A stretch of DNA of 64,000 nucleotides from Planctomycetota bacterium (GTDB lineage: Bacteria > Planctomycetota > UBA1135 > UBA2386), in the NCBI GenBank assembly GCA_965223545.1, contig OZ245006.1, forward strand, positions 3,392,001-3,456,000, written 5' to 3'. Made by a program: the position numbers and the translations under genes. Under the pieces are notes generated by a model. That model saw nothing but the letters and a program-made list of their open reading frames with translations, was not told the origin of the DNA and made no database searches. This document shows positions 1 to 44,021 of the stretch, piece by piece; the stretch's first letter is position 1, and each line of letters opens with the position of its first letter.

Positions 1-1260
1 CCCGACGGCAGTCGTCCGATCAAGCGATTCGGAACGACGACGCCCCAACTAGAGGCGCTCGCGGACTGGCTGGAGGAGCTCGGAGTGCGATCCGTCGCGA
101 TGGAGAGCACCTATGTCTACTGGATTCCCGTCTACGAGCTACTCGAGTCGAGAGGCTTCGAGGTCATCCTCGCGAATGCCCGCGAGGTGAAGAACGTGCC
201 GGGCCGCTCCAAGTCCGATGCCAGCGATTGCAGTTGGCTGCAGAAGCTACACACCTATGGCCTCATTCGCGCTTCGTTCCGGCCTCCGAAGGACATCTGT
301 GCGTTGCGGACCCTGCAACGCCATGCCGCGTCTTTGATCGCGCAGCGCACGCGCCACACGCAGTTGATGCAGCGGTCACTGGATCAGATGAACGTGGCGA
401 TCCATCGCGCGGTAACGGACATCACCGGCAAGACCGGCCTCGCGATCATCCGCGCGATTCTCGCTGGTGAACGCGACCCTCGAGCGCTCGCCAGACTGCG
501 TGATCCGCGCTGCAAGATCTCCGAGAAGGAGCTCGCGGATCACTTGCAAGGGACCTGGATCGAGGAGCACATCTTCACTCTCGCTTCGGGCTTGCGGATG
601 CTCGAGCACACCGACCACGAGATCGAGTCGGTCGAGAAGCGATTGATGGCGATGATCGAGGACCTGCAACCGGAGGAAGCCAAGACGGCCGACGTCCCCG
701 AGCATCCAGACCCCCGCAAGGAGAGGAGCATCCGAACGAAGGGCGGCCGGGAGCTTCGCGATGCCCTCTGCCGGCTCGTCGGGTGTGATCTCACGCGAAT
801 CGACGGTATCAGCCCGAGCACGGCCATGATCGTGCTCACCGAGGTCGGCTACGACCTCGATGCTTTCCCGACCGAGAAGCACTTCGTCTCCTGGCTACGC
901 CTGTGCCCACGTCAAGCCGTCTCGGGTGGAAAGCGCATCAAGAAGCACCGCAACAACATCGCGGTCAGCAGGATCGCCACGGTCCTCCGGATGGCCGCCC
1001 TGTCCCTCCAACGTACTCAGACAGCTCTCGGCGCACACTTCCGCAAGATCGCCCGCGCGAAGGACGGCAACGTCGCCATCTTTGCCATCGCCCGCAAACT
1101 GGCCCTGCTCATCTACCGCATGCTGAAGTTCGGCCAGGACTACGTAGACGAAGGCGCCAAGGCCTACGAGGAGCGCTTCACCCAGCGACGCATCGTCGGA
1201 CTCCGACAGAACGCTAAATCCCTCGGGTACAAGCTCATACCGATCGTCGAGGCTGGGTGA
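1..1260 (+). CDS. IS110-family (DEDD) transposase/recombinase, 5'-truncated by window edge
   Basis: Frame open from base 1 (PDGSRPIKRFGTTTPQLEALADWL...). RuvC-like motifs VAMEST and SKSDASD; C-terminal IS116/IS110/IS902-type motifs TRIDGIS, WLRLCP..SGG, AIFAIARKLA. Confidence 0.95.
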   Translation, partial: PDGSRPIKRFGTTTPQLEALADWLEELGVRSVAMESTYVYWIPVYELLESRGFEVILANAREVKNVPGRSKSDASDCSWLQKLHTYGLIRASFRPPKDICALRTLQRHAASLIAQRTRHTQLMQRSLDQMNVAIHRAVTDITGKTGLAIIRAILAGERDPRALARLRDPRCKISEKELADHLQGTWIEEHIFTLASGLRMLEHTDHEIESVEKRLMAMIEDLQPEEAKTADVPEHPDPRKERSIRTKGGRELRDALCRLVGCDLTRIDGISPSTAMIVLTEVGYDLDAFPTEKHFVSWLRLCPRQAVSGGKRIKKHRNNIAVSRIATVLRMAALSLQRTQTALGAHFRKIARAKDGNVAIFAIARKLALLIYRMLKFGQDYVDEGAKAYEERFTQRRIVGLRQNAKSLGYKLIPIVEAG

Positions 1261-1272
1261 GTTTCAGGTCAG
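1..1272 (+). mobile_element. IS110-family insertion sequence, right part (left end outside window)
   Basis: Transposase followed by about 12 nt (GTTTCAGGTCAG), then a half copy of a host repeat (GCTCCGTAC); boundary is inferred. Confidence 0.75.
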
Positions 1273-1281
1273 GCTCCGTAC

Positions 1282-2466
1282 TCACCAGGAGCGTGCTGCC
1301 AGCAGCTCGATCAGGCGGCCGATGCGCGTGCGCGTTGCCTCGTCCACGAGGGGGCGCGCCGCGTAGGTCTGCAGCGCGGTGACGTGGCGCCGGTCGCCGT
1401 AGGTGGCGATGCGCTCCAGACACTCTTCGACGATGTGCGGACTGGCGCGCGTCTCGAGCAAGCCGACGAAACCATCGGCCGCGGCGGCATAGGCTTCCTT
1501 GCCGACCCCGTGGCCGAGACCCCAGCGGGCGCGCTCGGAGACGTTGGGATCCGCGGCGGCAAGAGCGTCGACGAGCACACCGACAACTGCCGGCGACTTG
1601 TCTCGCAAGGTGCTCAGACCGAAGTAGATCGCGTCGTGCCGAGTTTCGGGTGCCGCGCTCAAGGCGAGCAGACGCTGCTCGACGCGGGGTCCGACCCGCG
1701 CACCCCAGAGTCCCGACAGTGACCCTTCGCGCACGCTCTCGTCGGCGTCGTCGAGCAGCGAGAACACGACGTCATCGATGGCACCATCCAGCGCACCGTC
1801 GTGGAACATCATCAGGATGTGACTCATCGACTTGCGCACCTCGGCGGCCGGGTCACGGGCGAGCGCCACCAACCGTGCGCCGTCTTCGGGCCGCACTTCG
1901 GTGTTCATCAAGGCATACAGCGCTGCGGCGCGCACCTCCGCGTCGCCGTGCTCCAGCAGTGGCCGCACCAACGGGCGCATGGCAGCCTTGTCGTAGTCGA
2001 GCTTGCGCAGTCCCGCGAGCGCGCGCAGCGCGGCCTGCATCGCCACCGGGTCGTCGCCGCCCAACGCGCGCCGGATCGCCTCGAGGGCCGCTTGCCGTGC
2101 GGCGGGGTCCGCGGTTTGCAGCGCGGCCTCGCGCCACTCCCGGATGAGCTCGGCGCGCCGCCGCATGCGCGCGCACTCCGCCTCGCGCTGCGCTGCGGCA
2201 GCCGAGGACTCCTGCGCGCCGGCAACGGTCTTCGTCCGATCCGGTACTGCCCGGGCCTGCTCCAGCTGCACGCGCAGCTGCGCCACCTCGGCTTGCAGCT
2301 GTTCGAACGCCGCGCGTTCTGCGGGCTCCTGTTGAATCGGGGGCGCACTCACCCGGGACGCGGTGCGCCGCCCGATCTCGAAAGCGGCGACGCTGCACAC
2401 CGCGACTGCGGCGAGCCACGCCCAGCGCGCCGCACCGGACTCTCGCCCTGTTGTCATTACATGCAT
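1282..2466 (-). CDS. Membrane-anchored HEAT-repeat protein
   Basis: N-terminal TM (WAWLAAVAVCSVAAF), coiled coil, repeated L..D....VR..A motifs; ATG overlaps upstream TGA (TGATG). Confidence 0.75.
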   Translation of the reverse strand: MHVMTTGRESGAARWAWLAAVAVCSVAAFEIGRRTASRVSAPPIQQEPAERAAFEQLQAEVAQLRVQLEQARAVPDRTKTVAGAQESSAAAAQREAECARMRRRAELIREWREAALQTADPAARQAALEAIRRALGGDDPVAMQAALRALAGLRKLDYDKAAMRPLVRPLLEHGDAEVRAAALYALMNTEVRPEDGARLVALARDPAAEVRKSMSHILMMFHDGALDGAIDDVVFSLLDDADESVREGSLSGLWGARVGPRVEQRLLALSAAPETRHDAIYFGLSTLRDKSPAVVGVLVDALAAADPNVSERARWGLGHGVGKEAYAAAADGFVGLLETRASPHIVEECLERIATYGDRRHVTALQTYAARPLVDEATRTRIGRLIELLAARSW

Positions 2467-28690: not shown

Positions 28691-28695
28691 GTGAT

Positions 28696-28719
28696 GAATC
28701 GGAGCCTGGCTCCGTACGT
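28696..28719. repeat. REP-like repeat, short copy
   Basis: GAATCGGAGCCTGGCTCCGTACGT between convergent genes; resembles 43995-44016. Confidence 0.65.
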
Positions 28720-30804
28720 TCAGAAGTCGATGCGGGTTGCGCTGGCCGCGGACGGGTCGAGTCCAGGACCGGGAGTGAGCCCGACCGCCGCCACCGACAG
28801 GATCCAGCCGACGGCGCTGAGGGGGATCTGACCGGCGGACAAGGTCAGCTGCGATTGCGCGGAGCCGGCCGCGTCCAGCACGCCGACGAACCCCGTGGTC
28901 AGCCCCCCGCCGGCGAGGCCGGCGGCGGTCAGCGGGTCCCAGTTGATCGGCACTTGCGCGCCGAAGAGCTGGACGCCCGGTAGCGTGCCCGACACGCTCA
29001 GCAGGGTCGCGTAGGGCATCCCGGCGCGGGCCGCGGTGCCCCGCAGGCGCACCGTGAACCCACCCCCGGCGACCGCCGACAGCCGAGCGGCGTCGGGCCG
29101 CGCACTCAGCGCCGGAGCGCGCACCGGCAGTGACAGCCGCGAGGGCCGCGCCGCGGTGTGGACCACGTCGATGCGATAGCTGTCGAAGTAGGGCACGGTG
29201 TGCATGTCCGTGCGACCCGGCGGCCGCCGGTAGGTGTGGTTCTCCAGCACCAGCACCCAGCGGTGCCCCGCCGGCAGGACGTAGTGGATGCCGGTCAGGG
29301 GGACCGCCAAACGCTCGCTGGTCGCCACCCGCCCGCGCAGGGCGCGAAACCCGTCCGCCACCCAGCGGCGGGCGCCGGCCGGACTCTGATCGAACAGCAC
29401 CGCGTGCAGCTGCAGGTTGGCCGCGGTGGAGTCGATCTCCACTTCGAGCGCGGGACGGCCGGTGAGCTCGACGGCGGCCGACGCCGGCGGGCCGACGAAC
29501 TCGACTTGGTCCAGGGGGATGTCGGCGAGCACCCTGGTGGCTCGGTTGCGCGTCGCCAGCCAGTTGGACGGACCGTAGCCCGCGGGCACGTTGTGGTGGA
29601 TCGGGTCGGCCGGTTCGGCGGACGAAGGCGGTGTCGGGTCCAAGGACTGCGTCTGCCGCAGGTAGAGAACGTCGTTCCGCGTCACGCCGGTCGCCGGATA
29701 CGAGCCGAAGTGGCGCAGCTGCCAAACGCTGTCGATGTCGAGGTAGACCGACGGGTCGGCGGGCATGGTCGACAACTGAAAGCGCGGCTGTTGCGCCACC
29801 TCTTCTGGGCGGCCTTTCATGATGTGTGCGAACCAGCGCCGCTCGATCTCCTCCCACGTGGCGAGCTCCAGATGGTTCAACGGCGACCCGTGCTCGCCGG
29901 TCGAGACGTGCACCTGGCGCGGGGTCGACGCGGGCATCGAGTTGATCGCGTCGACCATCGCGTCGGTGGTCGCCCACCAGTCGTACCATGAGTTGTGCGC
30001 GAACACCGCGGTGGTCGAGTTGCGGATCAGGGTCGGGTCGGCGCGCCAGGGCGTCGCGATGAGCGCGCGCCACGCATCGAAATCCTGGGCCAGAAACGCC
30101 TGCTGCCCGGCCTGCAAGAACGCGGGCTCGAACACGATCGGCCCGGGCACGAACCACTTGAGGATCATCCGCCCCGAAAACGTCTGCAGCTGTGGCGCGA
30201 TCAGATCGGCGAAGTCCGGGTTGGCCGCGCCGGGCGAGACCAGGCGGATGGACGGAAAGTGCGTGTGCGGGCCCCGCGGTGTCACCAGCGGGTTGCCGCT
30301 CCACGCCGCGGCGGCCCACGCATGGCCCGCTCCCTGCGACGTGCCGCGCACGGCGAGCCTGCCGAAGTCGAAGATCGGCCCAAGCAGCGCCGCCGCGCGG
30401 TGCAGGATCTCGACCATGTCGCCTTTCTCGAGCCCGCCAACCATGGTGCCGCCGTCACCGGGATTGAGGGCGATGGTCTCCCCCTGGCCGCGGACGTCGT
30501 AGGCGATCGCGACGTAGCCGCGCCGCGCGAAGTCCGTCGCCGGCCGCGCCTTGCCCTTGCGGCTGTCGCCGCCGGCGGGCACGAACAGCACCGCCGGCCA
30601 TCCCCCGGGCGGCGCGGCAACTGCCGCGGGATCCGGGTATCGCAGGTCGATGCGGGTGCGGTAGCCGTCGGTGTAGGTGAAGTCGAGGTCGAGCTGTTCA
30701 ACGAGCCCGAATCCCCCGATCGGCGGCGGCGGATCCTGCGCCCTGGCCCCCCCCGGGGCGGGACCGAGAACAGCGAGGAGGGTCAGAATGAGCACGGTGC
30801 GCAT
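28720..30804 (-). CDS. Secreted CocE/NonD (S15) alpha/beta hydrolase with extra C-terminal domain
   Basis: FARRGYVAIAYDVRGQG, GTSQG nucleophile elbow, PepX_C-like VELTGRP; signal peptide. Confidence 0.82.
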   Translation of the reverse strand: MRTVLILTLLAVLGPAPGGARAQDPPPPIGGFGLVEQLDLDFTYTDGYRTRIDLRYPDPAAVAAPPGGWPAVLFVPAGGDSRKGKARPATDFARRGYVAIAYDVRGQGETIALNPGDGGTMVGGLEKGDMVEILHRAAALLGPIFDFGRLAVRGTSQGAGHAWAAAAWSGNPLVTPRGPHTHFPSIRLVSPGAANPDFADLIAPQLQTFSGRMILKWFVPGPIVFEPAFLQAGQQAFLAQDFDAWRALIATPWRADPTLIRNSTTAVFAHNSWYDWWATTDAMVDAINSMPASTPRQVHVSTGEHGSPLNHLELATWEEIERRWFAHIMKGRPEEVAQQPRFQLSTMPADPSVYLDIDSVWQLRHFGSYPATGVTRNDVLYLRQTQSLDPTPPSSAEPADPIHHNVPAGYGPSNWLATRNRATRVLADIPLDQVEFVGPPASAAVELTGRPALEVEIDSTAANLQLHAVLFDQSPAGARRWVADGFRALRGRVATSERLAVPLTGIHYVLPAGHRWVLVLENHTYRRPPGRTDMHTVPYFDSYRIDVVHTAARPSRLSLPVRAPALSARPDAARLSAVAGGGFTVRLRGTAARAGMPYATLLSVSGTLPGVQLFGAQVPINWDPLTAAGLAGGGLTTGFVGVLDAAGSAQSQLTLSAGQIPLSAVGWILSVAAVGLTPGPGLDPSAASATRIDF

Positions 30805-30952: not shown

Positions 30953-30988
30953 AAGCGAGAAAATCGAGCCTGACACCGTACGTTTCGG
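30953..30988. repeat. REP-like repeat, single arm
   Basis: AAGCGAGAAAATCGAGCCTGACACCGTAC matches the right arm at 43988-44016 with one mismatch. Confidence 0.8.
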
Positions 30989-42985: not shown

Positions 42986-44008
42986 ATGACACAACCGCCA
43001 CGGCAGGCGCGCTCGCTGGGACCCGCGGCCCTGTTGCCGGTCCTGCTCGCCAGTCCGCCCCCCGCCGACGCCGCGGTGACGGGGCCCTATCGCGTGCTGG
43101 CGCCCCTGGGCCAGGGCACGATGGGCGCGGTCGCGCTGGCCGAGCAGCGCTCGCCTGTGCAGCGCCTGGTCGCGCTCAAGCGCCCGCGACAGGGCCAGGC
43201 CGGCGCCACCGTGCAGCGCGCGTTCGCGCACGAGGCGCGCGCCTTGGCGAGCGCGAACCACGACCACGTGGTGCGGCTGTTCGACACCGGCACCACTCCG
43301 GATGGACAGCCGTACACGGCGCTCGAGTACGTGCCCGGTCTGCCGATCACCGAGTACTGCGACCGCAACCGGCTCGGGTGGCGCGCGCGCCTGGAGCTGT
43401 TCGTGCAGCTGTGCGACGGAGTCGGCCACCTGCACGAAGAAGGCGTGGTGCACCGCGATCTCAAGCCGCACAACGTGCTGGTCACCGAGGCCTCGGGCCC
43501 GCCGCGCGTCAAGATCGTCGACCTCGGCCTCGCCGGCTTCCTGCACGACGGCGGTGAGAGCGGCCCGCGCGGCATGCTCGGCACGCCGGGCTACTTGGCG
43601 CCAGAACAAGCGGCCGGCGCAGCGCCCGCCCCCGCCGCCGACATCTACGCCCTCGGCGCCATCCTCTACGAGCTGCTCGCCGGCGCGCCACCACACACCC
43701 CGGCCGCCCTACTGGCCGGCGGCATCGGCGACGTACCCCGCCTGCTGCGCACCCAAGCGCCACCAACCCCTGCACAACGCTTCGCCGCGGCCGGCGCCCA
43801 GCGCGGCGCGATCGCCGCCGCCCGCCGCAGCTCGCGACTCGCCCTCGGCCTCCGCCTGCGCGGCAAGCTCGCCCGCCTCGCCCACCGCGCCGTGCAGATC
43901 GACTCCGCAGACCGACCCCCCTCCGCACAAGCCCTCGCCACGGAAGTACGGAGTCAGTCTCGATTTTCTCGCTTGGCGGCAGCCGCCAAGCGAGAAAATC
44001 GAGCCTGA
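42986..44008 (+). CDS. Hanks-type Ser/Thr protein kinase (kinase domain only)
   Basis: LGQGTMG, VALK, HRDLKPHN, DLGLA, GTPGYLAPEQ, DIYALG. Confidence 0.92.
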   Translation: MTQPPRQARSLGPAALLPVLLASPPPADAAVTGPYRVLAPLGQGTMGAVALAEQRSPVQRLVALKRPRQGQAGATVQRAFAHEARALASANHDHVVRLFDTGTTPDGQPYTALEYVPGLPITEYCDRNRLGWRARLELFVQLCDGVGHLHEEGVVHRDLKPHNVLVTEASGPPRVKIVDLGLAGFLHDGGESGPRGMLGTPGYLAPEQAAGAAPAPAADIYALGAILYELLAGAPPHTPAALLAGGIGDVPRLLRTQAPPTPAQRFAAAGAQRGAIAAARRSSRLALGLRLRGKLARLAHRAVQIDSADRPPSAQALATEVRSQSRFSRLAAAAKRENRA

Positions 44009-44021
44009 CTCCGTACTTCCG
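43941..44021. repeat. 81-bp near-perfect palindrome (REP-like)
   Basis: CGGAAGTACGGAGTCAGTCTCGATTTTCTCGCTTGGCGGC-A-GCCGCCAAGCGAGAAAATCGAGCCTGACTCCGTACTTCCG: 40-bp arms, 1 mismatch. Confidence 0.95.

Follow-up and report, generated by a model that had tools for sequence, protein, structure and literature searches.

An AG-core IS110 element in a palindromic host repeat, with a candidate donor guide that matches a displaced left-end motif

Results

We analyzed a 64,000-nucleotide (nt) stretch of the genome of a Planctomycetota bacterium (assembly GCA_965223545.1, contig OZ245006.1; genome 8.1 Mb, 69.7% G+C), hereafter the window, which opens inside the recombinase gene of an IS110-family insertion sequence (IS). 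Window positions are given as plain numbers and all others as C1 coordinates, where the window is G000:C1:3392001-3456000 and window base 1 is C1:3392001. The element is a recently expanded member of an IS110 clade with an AG core and a recombinase of about 460 amino acids. Its ends and copies are likely best explained overall by RNA-guided recombination at an AG core within a palindromic repeat, in which the fourth guide of the RNA would read a displaced motif, termed M, inside the left end.

Element boundaries and insertion site

The recombinase gene starts with an ATG at C1:3391878, 123 bases upstream of the window, and the start of the element is also upstream. The features of the element and its insertion site are as follows.

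1..1260, plus strand: IS110 DEDD recombinase gene (460 amino acids; D29, E76, D114, D117, S349)
1257..1270, plus strand: element right end, with inverted repeat AGTTTC followed by AGGTC; the donor guide matches this end
1271..1272, plus strand: AG core, right copy (opposite strand CT)
1273..1284, plus strand: interrupted repeat, right half, GCTCCGTACTCA, ending in the three-base stop codon of a convergent minus-strand HEAT-repeat gene
C1:3391615-3391624, outside the window: left target half, GTACGGAGCC
C1:3391625-3391626, outside the window: left AG core
C1:3391634-3391650, outside the window: left-end hairpin
C1:3391650-3391657, outside the window: motif M (GCCCTTCA)
C1:3391664-3391669, outside the window: inverted repeat GAAACT

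The genome holds 23 full copies that are 99.3-100% identical, with 12 variable columns, and every one of them is bounded by a pair of AG dinucleotides separated by 1643-1644 bp. GAGCC closes the left flank in 23/23 copies, as part of GTAC(G/C)GAGCC in 22/23, while right flanks start with GCTCC in 22/23 and continue into GTAC in only 8/23. When the flanks are rejoined across the element they recreate existing empty sites, 54 of which were listed. In the window the transposase stop codon (1258-1260) is followed by GTTTCAGGTCA (1261-1271) and then GGCTCCGTAC (1272-1281), and from the flank comparison we can conclude that the element ends at 1270, that the core is 1271-1272, and that GCTCCGTAC belongs to the host repeat. 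A preliminary description of the window had proposed that a repeat half abuts the right end from position 1272, and had raised the questions whether the left flank ends in the other half and whether all copies share this target site. The abutment and the shared site are borne out, and the upstream sequence reads GTACGGAGCC-AG as anticipated; only the starting position moves, as G1272 belongs to the AG core and the target half starts at 1273.

That description had also placed GCTCCGTAC outside the element. The opposite view, that it is a terminal inverted repeat of the element and that the dispersed copies are IS footprints or ends of miniature inverted-repeat transposable elements, has in its favor that the two flanks of the window copy are inverted complements. 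Against this, the full right 9-mer is present in only 8/23 copies, homologues that share the right end sit in unrelated flanks, each following the homologue's own guide, and the repeat flanks a Y1 gene while its sister repeat flanks a second one. The flank comparison and the guide-flank covariation in homologues lead us to reject this view, which we regard as extremely improbable.

The left end is about 250 nt long and the right end extends 10 nt past the stop codon, which, with the RNA in the left end, is the layout of the IS110 group rather than the IS1111 group. Insertion occurs at a short core with no longer target duplication, as is characteristic of the IS110 family. No circle junction between the right and left ends is present in the assembly, and no such joint was found in the Logan contigs of four runs, although these contigs drop rare forms. 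One copy, at C1:4826224, is exceptional in that about 170 bp and the element are tandemly duplicated (C1:4826058-4829691), ending at an unrelated AG. It looks like a half-match product of the type described previously (10.64898/2026.08.31.748434, 10.64898/2026.08.14.744561). A remnant at C1:988112-988240 (L012) lacks a left end and has the first ~40 codons of the transposase fused to the right end, which is followed by non-repeat sequence, and short direct duplications of repeat halves plus flanking bases lie beside some insertions (C1:2159100-2159175, 1013439, 4330725).

A putative two-loop guide RNA in the left end

The preliminary description had expected a bridge-type RNA in the left end, and a conserved two-loop RNA sequence is indeed located there, outside the window, carrying the guide GAGCCAG. 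Its features are listed below.

C1:3391703-3391851, outside the window, left end: conserved two-loop RNA
C1:3391726: short target strand
C1:3391751-3391757: target guide GAGCCAG
C1:3391776-3391783: donor 5' strand, ATCCTTCA
C1:3391817-3391824: donor guide, CAGGTCAG

Among 138 upstream regions, a conserved 150-nt element gives 58 near-full matches, 31 partial matches and 49 with none, and a covariance model finds 63 matches in 83 mostly more distant loci. The consensus contains two internal loops, with compensatory change at 19/30 pairs. An Rfam search gave no real match to the two-loop RNA, a sigma-70 scan of the left end found nothing, and the single-sequence fold of the left end is unremarkable (z=-1.5). 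One of the 86 models of 10.64898/2026.10.21.760802, or the supplements of PMC11208160, may already include this RNA.

Four segments of the RNA covary with DNA, and three of them are described here. In loop 1, the 3' strand is identical to the left flank followed by the core (GAGCCAG here); a match of at least 6 nt is found for 25/28 distinct guides (null mean 1.7), and the mean match between target guide and left flank is 6.6 versus 3.3 nt (0/10,000 permutations). The 3' strand of loop 2 (CAGGTCAG) equals the right end plus the core, with a mean match of 6.9 versus 3.8 nt (n=19, 0/10,000 permutations). For the 5' strand of loop 1, complementarity to positions 1-4 of the right flank reaches 57/148 bases, compared with 34.4 (0/2,000), a signal that persists when the present element and its closest relative are left out (52/140, 1/2,000) and that is absent from the four other registers of the five scanned for this short strand. 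Additionally, the base 3' of the target guide can pair with the left end's first base in 30/32 cases (24 identical, 6 wobble).

In the present element, the left target arm and core are thus covered by a 7-nt guide, the right end and core by an 8-nt guide, and the right arm by a leaky one of 3-4 nt. The conserved two loops, and covariation of each target-loop strand with its arm of the target, are the marks of a bridge RNA, with a right arm that is short and leaky. Read on the CT strand, the order of the guides is that of IS621 (PMC11208160), which indicates that the element is inverted relative to the core.

Target selection

The 10-mer at 1272-1281 occurs exactly at 28708-28717, with one mismatch at 44007-44016 and 43946-43955, and with two mismatches in the copy at 30966-30981, so that the sites named in the preliminary description are located where it placed them. 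With up to one mismatch it is found 12 times in the window versus 5.2 expected, a count reached by 0/100 shuffles, and genome-wide the exact 10-mer occurs 152 times versus 13 expected under an order-5 Markov model. The empty palindrome GGAGCCAGGCTCC has 85 copies genome-wide versus 0.3 expected. The repeats fall into family 1, which the element interrupts, and a sister family 2, which carries one mismatch at a guide position. The window contains the following members beyond the interrupted one.

28692..28722, minus strand: empty family-1 repeat, the true candidate target; core 28706-28707, read on the minus strand
30955..30981, minus strand: family-2 repeat, GTGTCAG variant; not a target
43946..44016, no single strand: two family-2 repeats (GAGTCAG) as an inverted doublet; not a target

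It is very likely, judging from the match between guide and site, that targeting of the palindromic repeat is RNA-guided and of the same kind as in the known REP-targeting IS110s (REP, repetitive extragenic palindromic). The predicted 10-bp target GAGCC-AG-GCT (GAGCCAGGCT) occurs 104 times in the genome, and 85 of these occurrences are in family 1; the 7-mer guide sequence alone occurs 1,959 times. About 10 bp explain most of the site choice. Family 2 provides a one-mismatch comparison, with none of 43 GAGTCAG sites occupied against 21/103 (Fisher p=5e-4). The preliminary description was right in its main inference, and it had taken the three other repeat locations as empty target sites. This is correct for the copy at 28701 only, while those at 30966 and 44001/43946 are family-2 sites and two of the three proposals are wrong. 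Even at 28701, the matching 10-mer is the left target arm and not the right one, as the insertion point reads on the minus strand. The suggestion of a new target specificity survives only in the sense that each IS110 has its own guide, as REP targeting itself is known.

It is possible that the guides are not sufficient, and that site choice also needs the repeat hairpin or a bound Y1 protein, as in the gate by a target stem-loop proposed for ISPpu10 (10.64898/2026.03.19.712850). All 22 of the 22 regular insertions are in repeats and none is in another 10-mer site, which together with the abundance of the 7-mer would favor such a gate. We nevertheless consider it unlikely, given how few 10-mers lie outside the repeat. 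The deficit there (0 occupied and 16 empty, versus 22 and 88 in repeats) is not significant at p=0.07, with three variant repeats classed by eye, and could reflect selection against insertion in genes. Doublets of the repeat are not preferred (8/23 occupied versus 31/80 empty sites), and the right flanks of homologues are rarely hairpins, with only 4/32 having z below -2. RNA-guided choice of about 10 bp would make this element a natural case of bridge-RNA selection on a repeat linked to a TIRYT-like gene, with the sister repeat as a built-in one-mismatch control.

A candidate displaced donor guide

The remaining strand of the RNA, the donor-loop 5' strand, behaves differently from IS621-type guides, which pair both donor arms adjoining the core: the right-end arm is matched here, while the other match is displaced to M. 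No match is seen beside the core, with no diagonal against left-end positions 1-8 or 1-15. Instead, the strand matches M in the same sense, approximately 21-30 nt inside the left end. The layout of the left end is AG, 8 nt, a GC hairpin that varies in length, M (8 nt, with CA as its usual last bases), 4-7 nt, and GAAAC, which is an inverted copy of the right-end GTTTC. When M was located by the GAAAC rule alone, as could be done in 31/42 left ends, comparison of 14 distinct guides gave 78/84 matching bases versus 47.0 expected (null maximum 64, 0/20,000). Across 34 dereplicated left ends, every one matches at 6 or more of the 8 bases and 25 match at 7-8; the spacers on the two sides of the hairpin are equal in 24/34 and within 1 nt in 33/34. 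Of 18 region-by-sense cells, only left-end positions 16-45 in the same sense stand out (z=8.7; next 2.9). Changes in guide and M also coincide on a rough protein tree of 30 loci (35 and 39 changes, 46 joint versus 74 summed), in which one protein (L111) was wrongly picked. In these alignments the guide-M covariation is solid within the close clade.

As M and the donor 5' strand are same-sense, they could covary as RNA, being parts of one precursor transcript in which each would pair in turn with a third segment or an Asr9-like antisense RNA; ISPpu9 has a 5' leader that is structured, together with an antisense RNA (PMC8450116, PMC12288879). A search of the flanks, the right end, the 120 nt downstream, the RNA and the remainder of the left end yielded no covarying complementary partner. 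The donor 5' strand occupies exactly the guide position in the internal loop. Covariation at the RNA level is improbable, and recognition of M by a guide is the reading that we develop here.

A fold-back model for the donor

The recombinase probably binds the two-loop RNA, with donor and target recombined at the AG core as in IS621. Beyond this, we hypothesize that the fourth guide reads the donor arm at M, ~25 nt inside the left end and not beside the core. Because guide and M are same-sense, the guide could pair only with the strand that is also read by the other donor guide. Folding of that strand back on itself at the hairpin would bring the complement of M opposite the 8-nt spacer, beside the core, which is the position of the missing donor arm. 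The fold-back would make two short inverted repeats symmetric about the junction, and the donor would be a cruciform or single-stranded DNA. We put donor recognition by fold-back at an even chance. As single-stranded DNA, the left end of the present element is predicted to form a 13-bp stem in which M is an 8-nt bulge (z=-4.1 and -3.6). The model bears on whether IS110 donors are single- or double-stranded; copy-out excision (10.1101/2025.10.25.684509) and a single-stranded circle (10.64898/2026.08.31.748434) have been reported.

Several points weigh against this interpretation. The RNA and the recombination are predicted here from sequence. M of the present element matches its guide at only 6/8 bases, and its predicted fold, with a bulge 8 bp from the core, is unlike the simple 8+8 geometry of most homologues. 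Distant homologues have a loose M match (~5/8) and poor spacer symmetry. Among loci unused for discovery (58 matches, of which 40 were parsed and 18 unparsable, with 26 distinct guides), the match persists but is weaker, at 134/208 versus 121.0 (42/20,000), and the overlapping interval 40-60 also exceeds the null (525/20,000). Homologues show weak right-arm target pairing (39% of bases), and a search for a displaced motif for the target loop found none (z=-0.9). Finally, a hairpin mutant of ISPpu9 still formed circles as detected by polymerase chain reaction, while mutated bases beside AG disturbed circles (PMC12288879), so that the M contact may serve integration or efficiency, or be accessory.

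The last of these options is the strongest competitor. Here the donor 5' strand would pair with M within duplex DNA, in an accessory or regulatory role such as left-end anchoring or occlusion of the left-end promoter, and catalysis would rely on the right-end half match, the core and handshake bases. Besides the ISPpu9 mutant, it is favored by the half-match excision reported for IS621 (10.64898/2026.08.31.748434), by the copy that ends at an unrelated AG in a tandem duplication, and by the decay of the M match in distant homologues. It leaves the symmetric spacers and the mirrored inverted repeats unexplained, and we consider it somewhat unlikely, if less so than the other alternatives. If the fold-back model is true, it would represent a second geometry for RNA-guided recombination, in which one flank of the donor core is almost free in sequence and the donor is gated by structure. 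Donor-arm calls that assume contiguity would then miss the displaced guide, which is relevant to reprogramming the recombinases of the AG-core clade.

Host repeats and Y1 genes

Family 1 (GTACGGAGCCAGGCTCC), dispersed in ~100 copies, has 79 exact empty copies and 113 with up to one mismatch, and in inverted orientation it flanks a Y1/HuH transposase gene at C1:3914532. Family 2 has 123 matches with up to three mismatches and flanks a second Y1 gene at C1:1729868. Each gene has inverted-repeat flanks and encodes a Y1 domain and, at the C terminus, a weak helix-turn-helix match (below its cut-off). The two proteins score 63 and 57 bits with the RAYT model NF047646, under its cut-off of 80, and the tag of the repeats is GTAC, which sets them apart from GTAG-type REP/RAYT systems. 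The repeats and Y1 genes fit descriptions of TIRYT, or TnpA-Y1 subclass 2.1, as far as their domain and repeat organization indicates. Homologues are present in 17/60 same-family genomes, and GTAC is present in the best flanking inverted repeat at 8/23 foreign loci. The exact family-1 17-mer (either central base) occurs 98 times here and once each in 3/60 relatives, in agreement with the lineage-specific repeat family that had been proposed.

The repeats are frequently located at the ends of genes. Frames of at least 150 codons end within 9 nt of 76/145 family-1 repeats and 42/115 family-2 repeats, compared with 33/1,500 control GTAC sites. As the preliminary description noted, three of its four sites are near a minus-strand stop codon (0, 2 and 5 nt from 1281, 28717 and 44016), and none was found at 30981. 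The outer repeat ends (TGA...TCA) often supply or abut stop codons, with a family-1 peak at 2 nt; in the window this is seen at 1282-1284 and 28720-28722.

The element is present in both repeats that flank the Y1 gene at C1:3914532. At C1:3912816-3917196, these two inverted IS110 copies interrupt both family-1 repeats and so form a potential composite unit. At C1:1714944-1718285, two tandem copies of the IS fill both halves of one repeat doublet, one of them in opposite polarity relative to the GTAC tag, which indicates that insertion polarity follows the central A and not the tag. Twelve similar short Y1 transposase matches (C1:1355010 and 11 other places) make up a separate multi-copy family. 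The one inspected lies directly 3' of what resembles the end of a group II intron reverse transcriptase.

Recombinase relatives and origin

The 460-amino-acid protein contains PF01548 and PF02371 and scores 248 bits with NF033542 (cut-off 140), as expected of the IS110 family. The DEDD residues are unchanged in 46/46 aligned homologues, and position 349 is Ser in 39 and Thr in 7. A structure model has a mean predicted local distance difference test score of 89, and its best matches are IS621 and ISCro4 (PDB 8wt6-8wt9, 9t56; Foldseek E ~1e-12). The closest protein relatives are 78% identical, from an unclassified metagenome-assembled genome, and then 50-61%, from Myxococcota and others. At E<1e-40, the recombinase is found in 0/36 same-family genomes and 1/60 relatives overall (38% identity), and plasmid searches returned no named close element, the best full-length match being 46%. 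The distribution of relatives suggests that the element arrived horizontally and then expanded recently.

Two groups of homologous loci were also observed. At L095, L096, L016, L110, L117, L123 and L142, the left flanks resemble the right ends of related IS110s and the target guides mostly match, as with an IS110 inserting beside an IS110. A subgroup comprising L033, L059, L132, L138, L140 and L222 has an AA core and A-rich target guides, and several of its members are apparently at the end of another transposase gene.

Comparison with known systems

Targeting of REPs by IS110s is established for IS621 (PMC11208160), ISPpu9 (PMC12288879, PMC8450116) and ISPpu10 (10.64898/2026.03.19.712850), and natural guide change has been reported (PMC11187229). 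IS621 and ISCro4 (PMC11208160) share with the present element the DEDD and Ser fold, a left-end two-loop RNA, guides that include the core and a handshake-like base, as well as, for IS621, a REP target. They differ from it at ~20% identity and in length (~330 versus 460 amino acids), and the present element has AG as its core on the gene strand, long guides on the 3' strands of the loops, and a fourth guide that matches a displaced motif. ISPpu10 is likewise a REP-targeting IS110 with a hairpin-forming target and has the core CT; there the structure is in the target, whereas the structural evidence here is in the donor end. The IS1111 group (PMC11187229, PMC11208160) has sub-terminal inverted repeats in common with the present element and, on the gene strand, a top-strand match before the bottom-strand match. 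In that group, however, the RNA is downstream of the gene and sub-terminal repeats of 11-13 bp lie 7 and 3 bp from the ends, whereas here the RNA is upstream, the inverted repeats are 5-7 bp with the left one ~38 nt inside, and the protein far exceeds 330-350 amino acids.

For the repeats, the comparison is with TIRtrons/TIRYT and TnpA-Y1 subclass 2.1 (PMC3733652, 10.1101/279083), which also combine a Y1 HuH gene encoding a C-terminal helix-turn-helix with flanking inverted repeats that are dispersed as singles and doublets. The present repeats are tagged by GTAC, which occurs 0 times in the main text of those two papers, and among the papers returned by literature searches no title or abstract opening describes an IS110 as targeting TIRtron-type repeats.

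The closest parallel is ISPpu9 of Pseudomonas putida, which has the same AG core and a REP target and whose circles recombined at AG. Its A box consists of AG, 8 nt, a hairpin, 8 nt, 7 nt and CAAAC, and its B box of GTTTG, 5 nt and AG, the same layouts as the present left and right ends, respectively. It differs in targeting GTAG-type REPs and in carrying ssr9, and its kinship with the present element is judged by end layout only. The available text of PMC12288879 and PMC8450116 leaves the ISPpu9 guides unmapped and the A-box hairpin unexplained. Recognition of a folded-back donor, if true, would account for this hairpin, and we consider it evenly balanced whether the whole AG-core, long-recombinase branch of IS110, apparently including ISPpu9, recognizes its donor in this way. 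The literature consulted on IS110 guides, which included 10.64898/2026.10.21.760802 and excluded figures, bioRxiv supplements and most subscription papers, describes no displaced donor arm and no guide mapping for this clade. These comparisons suggest that it is the displaced donor guide that may be new here, and that the targeting itself is already known in kind.

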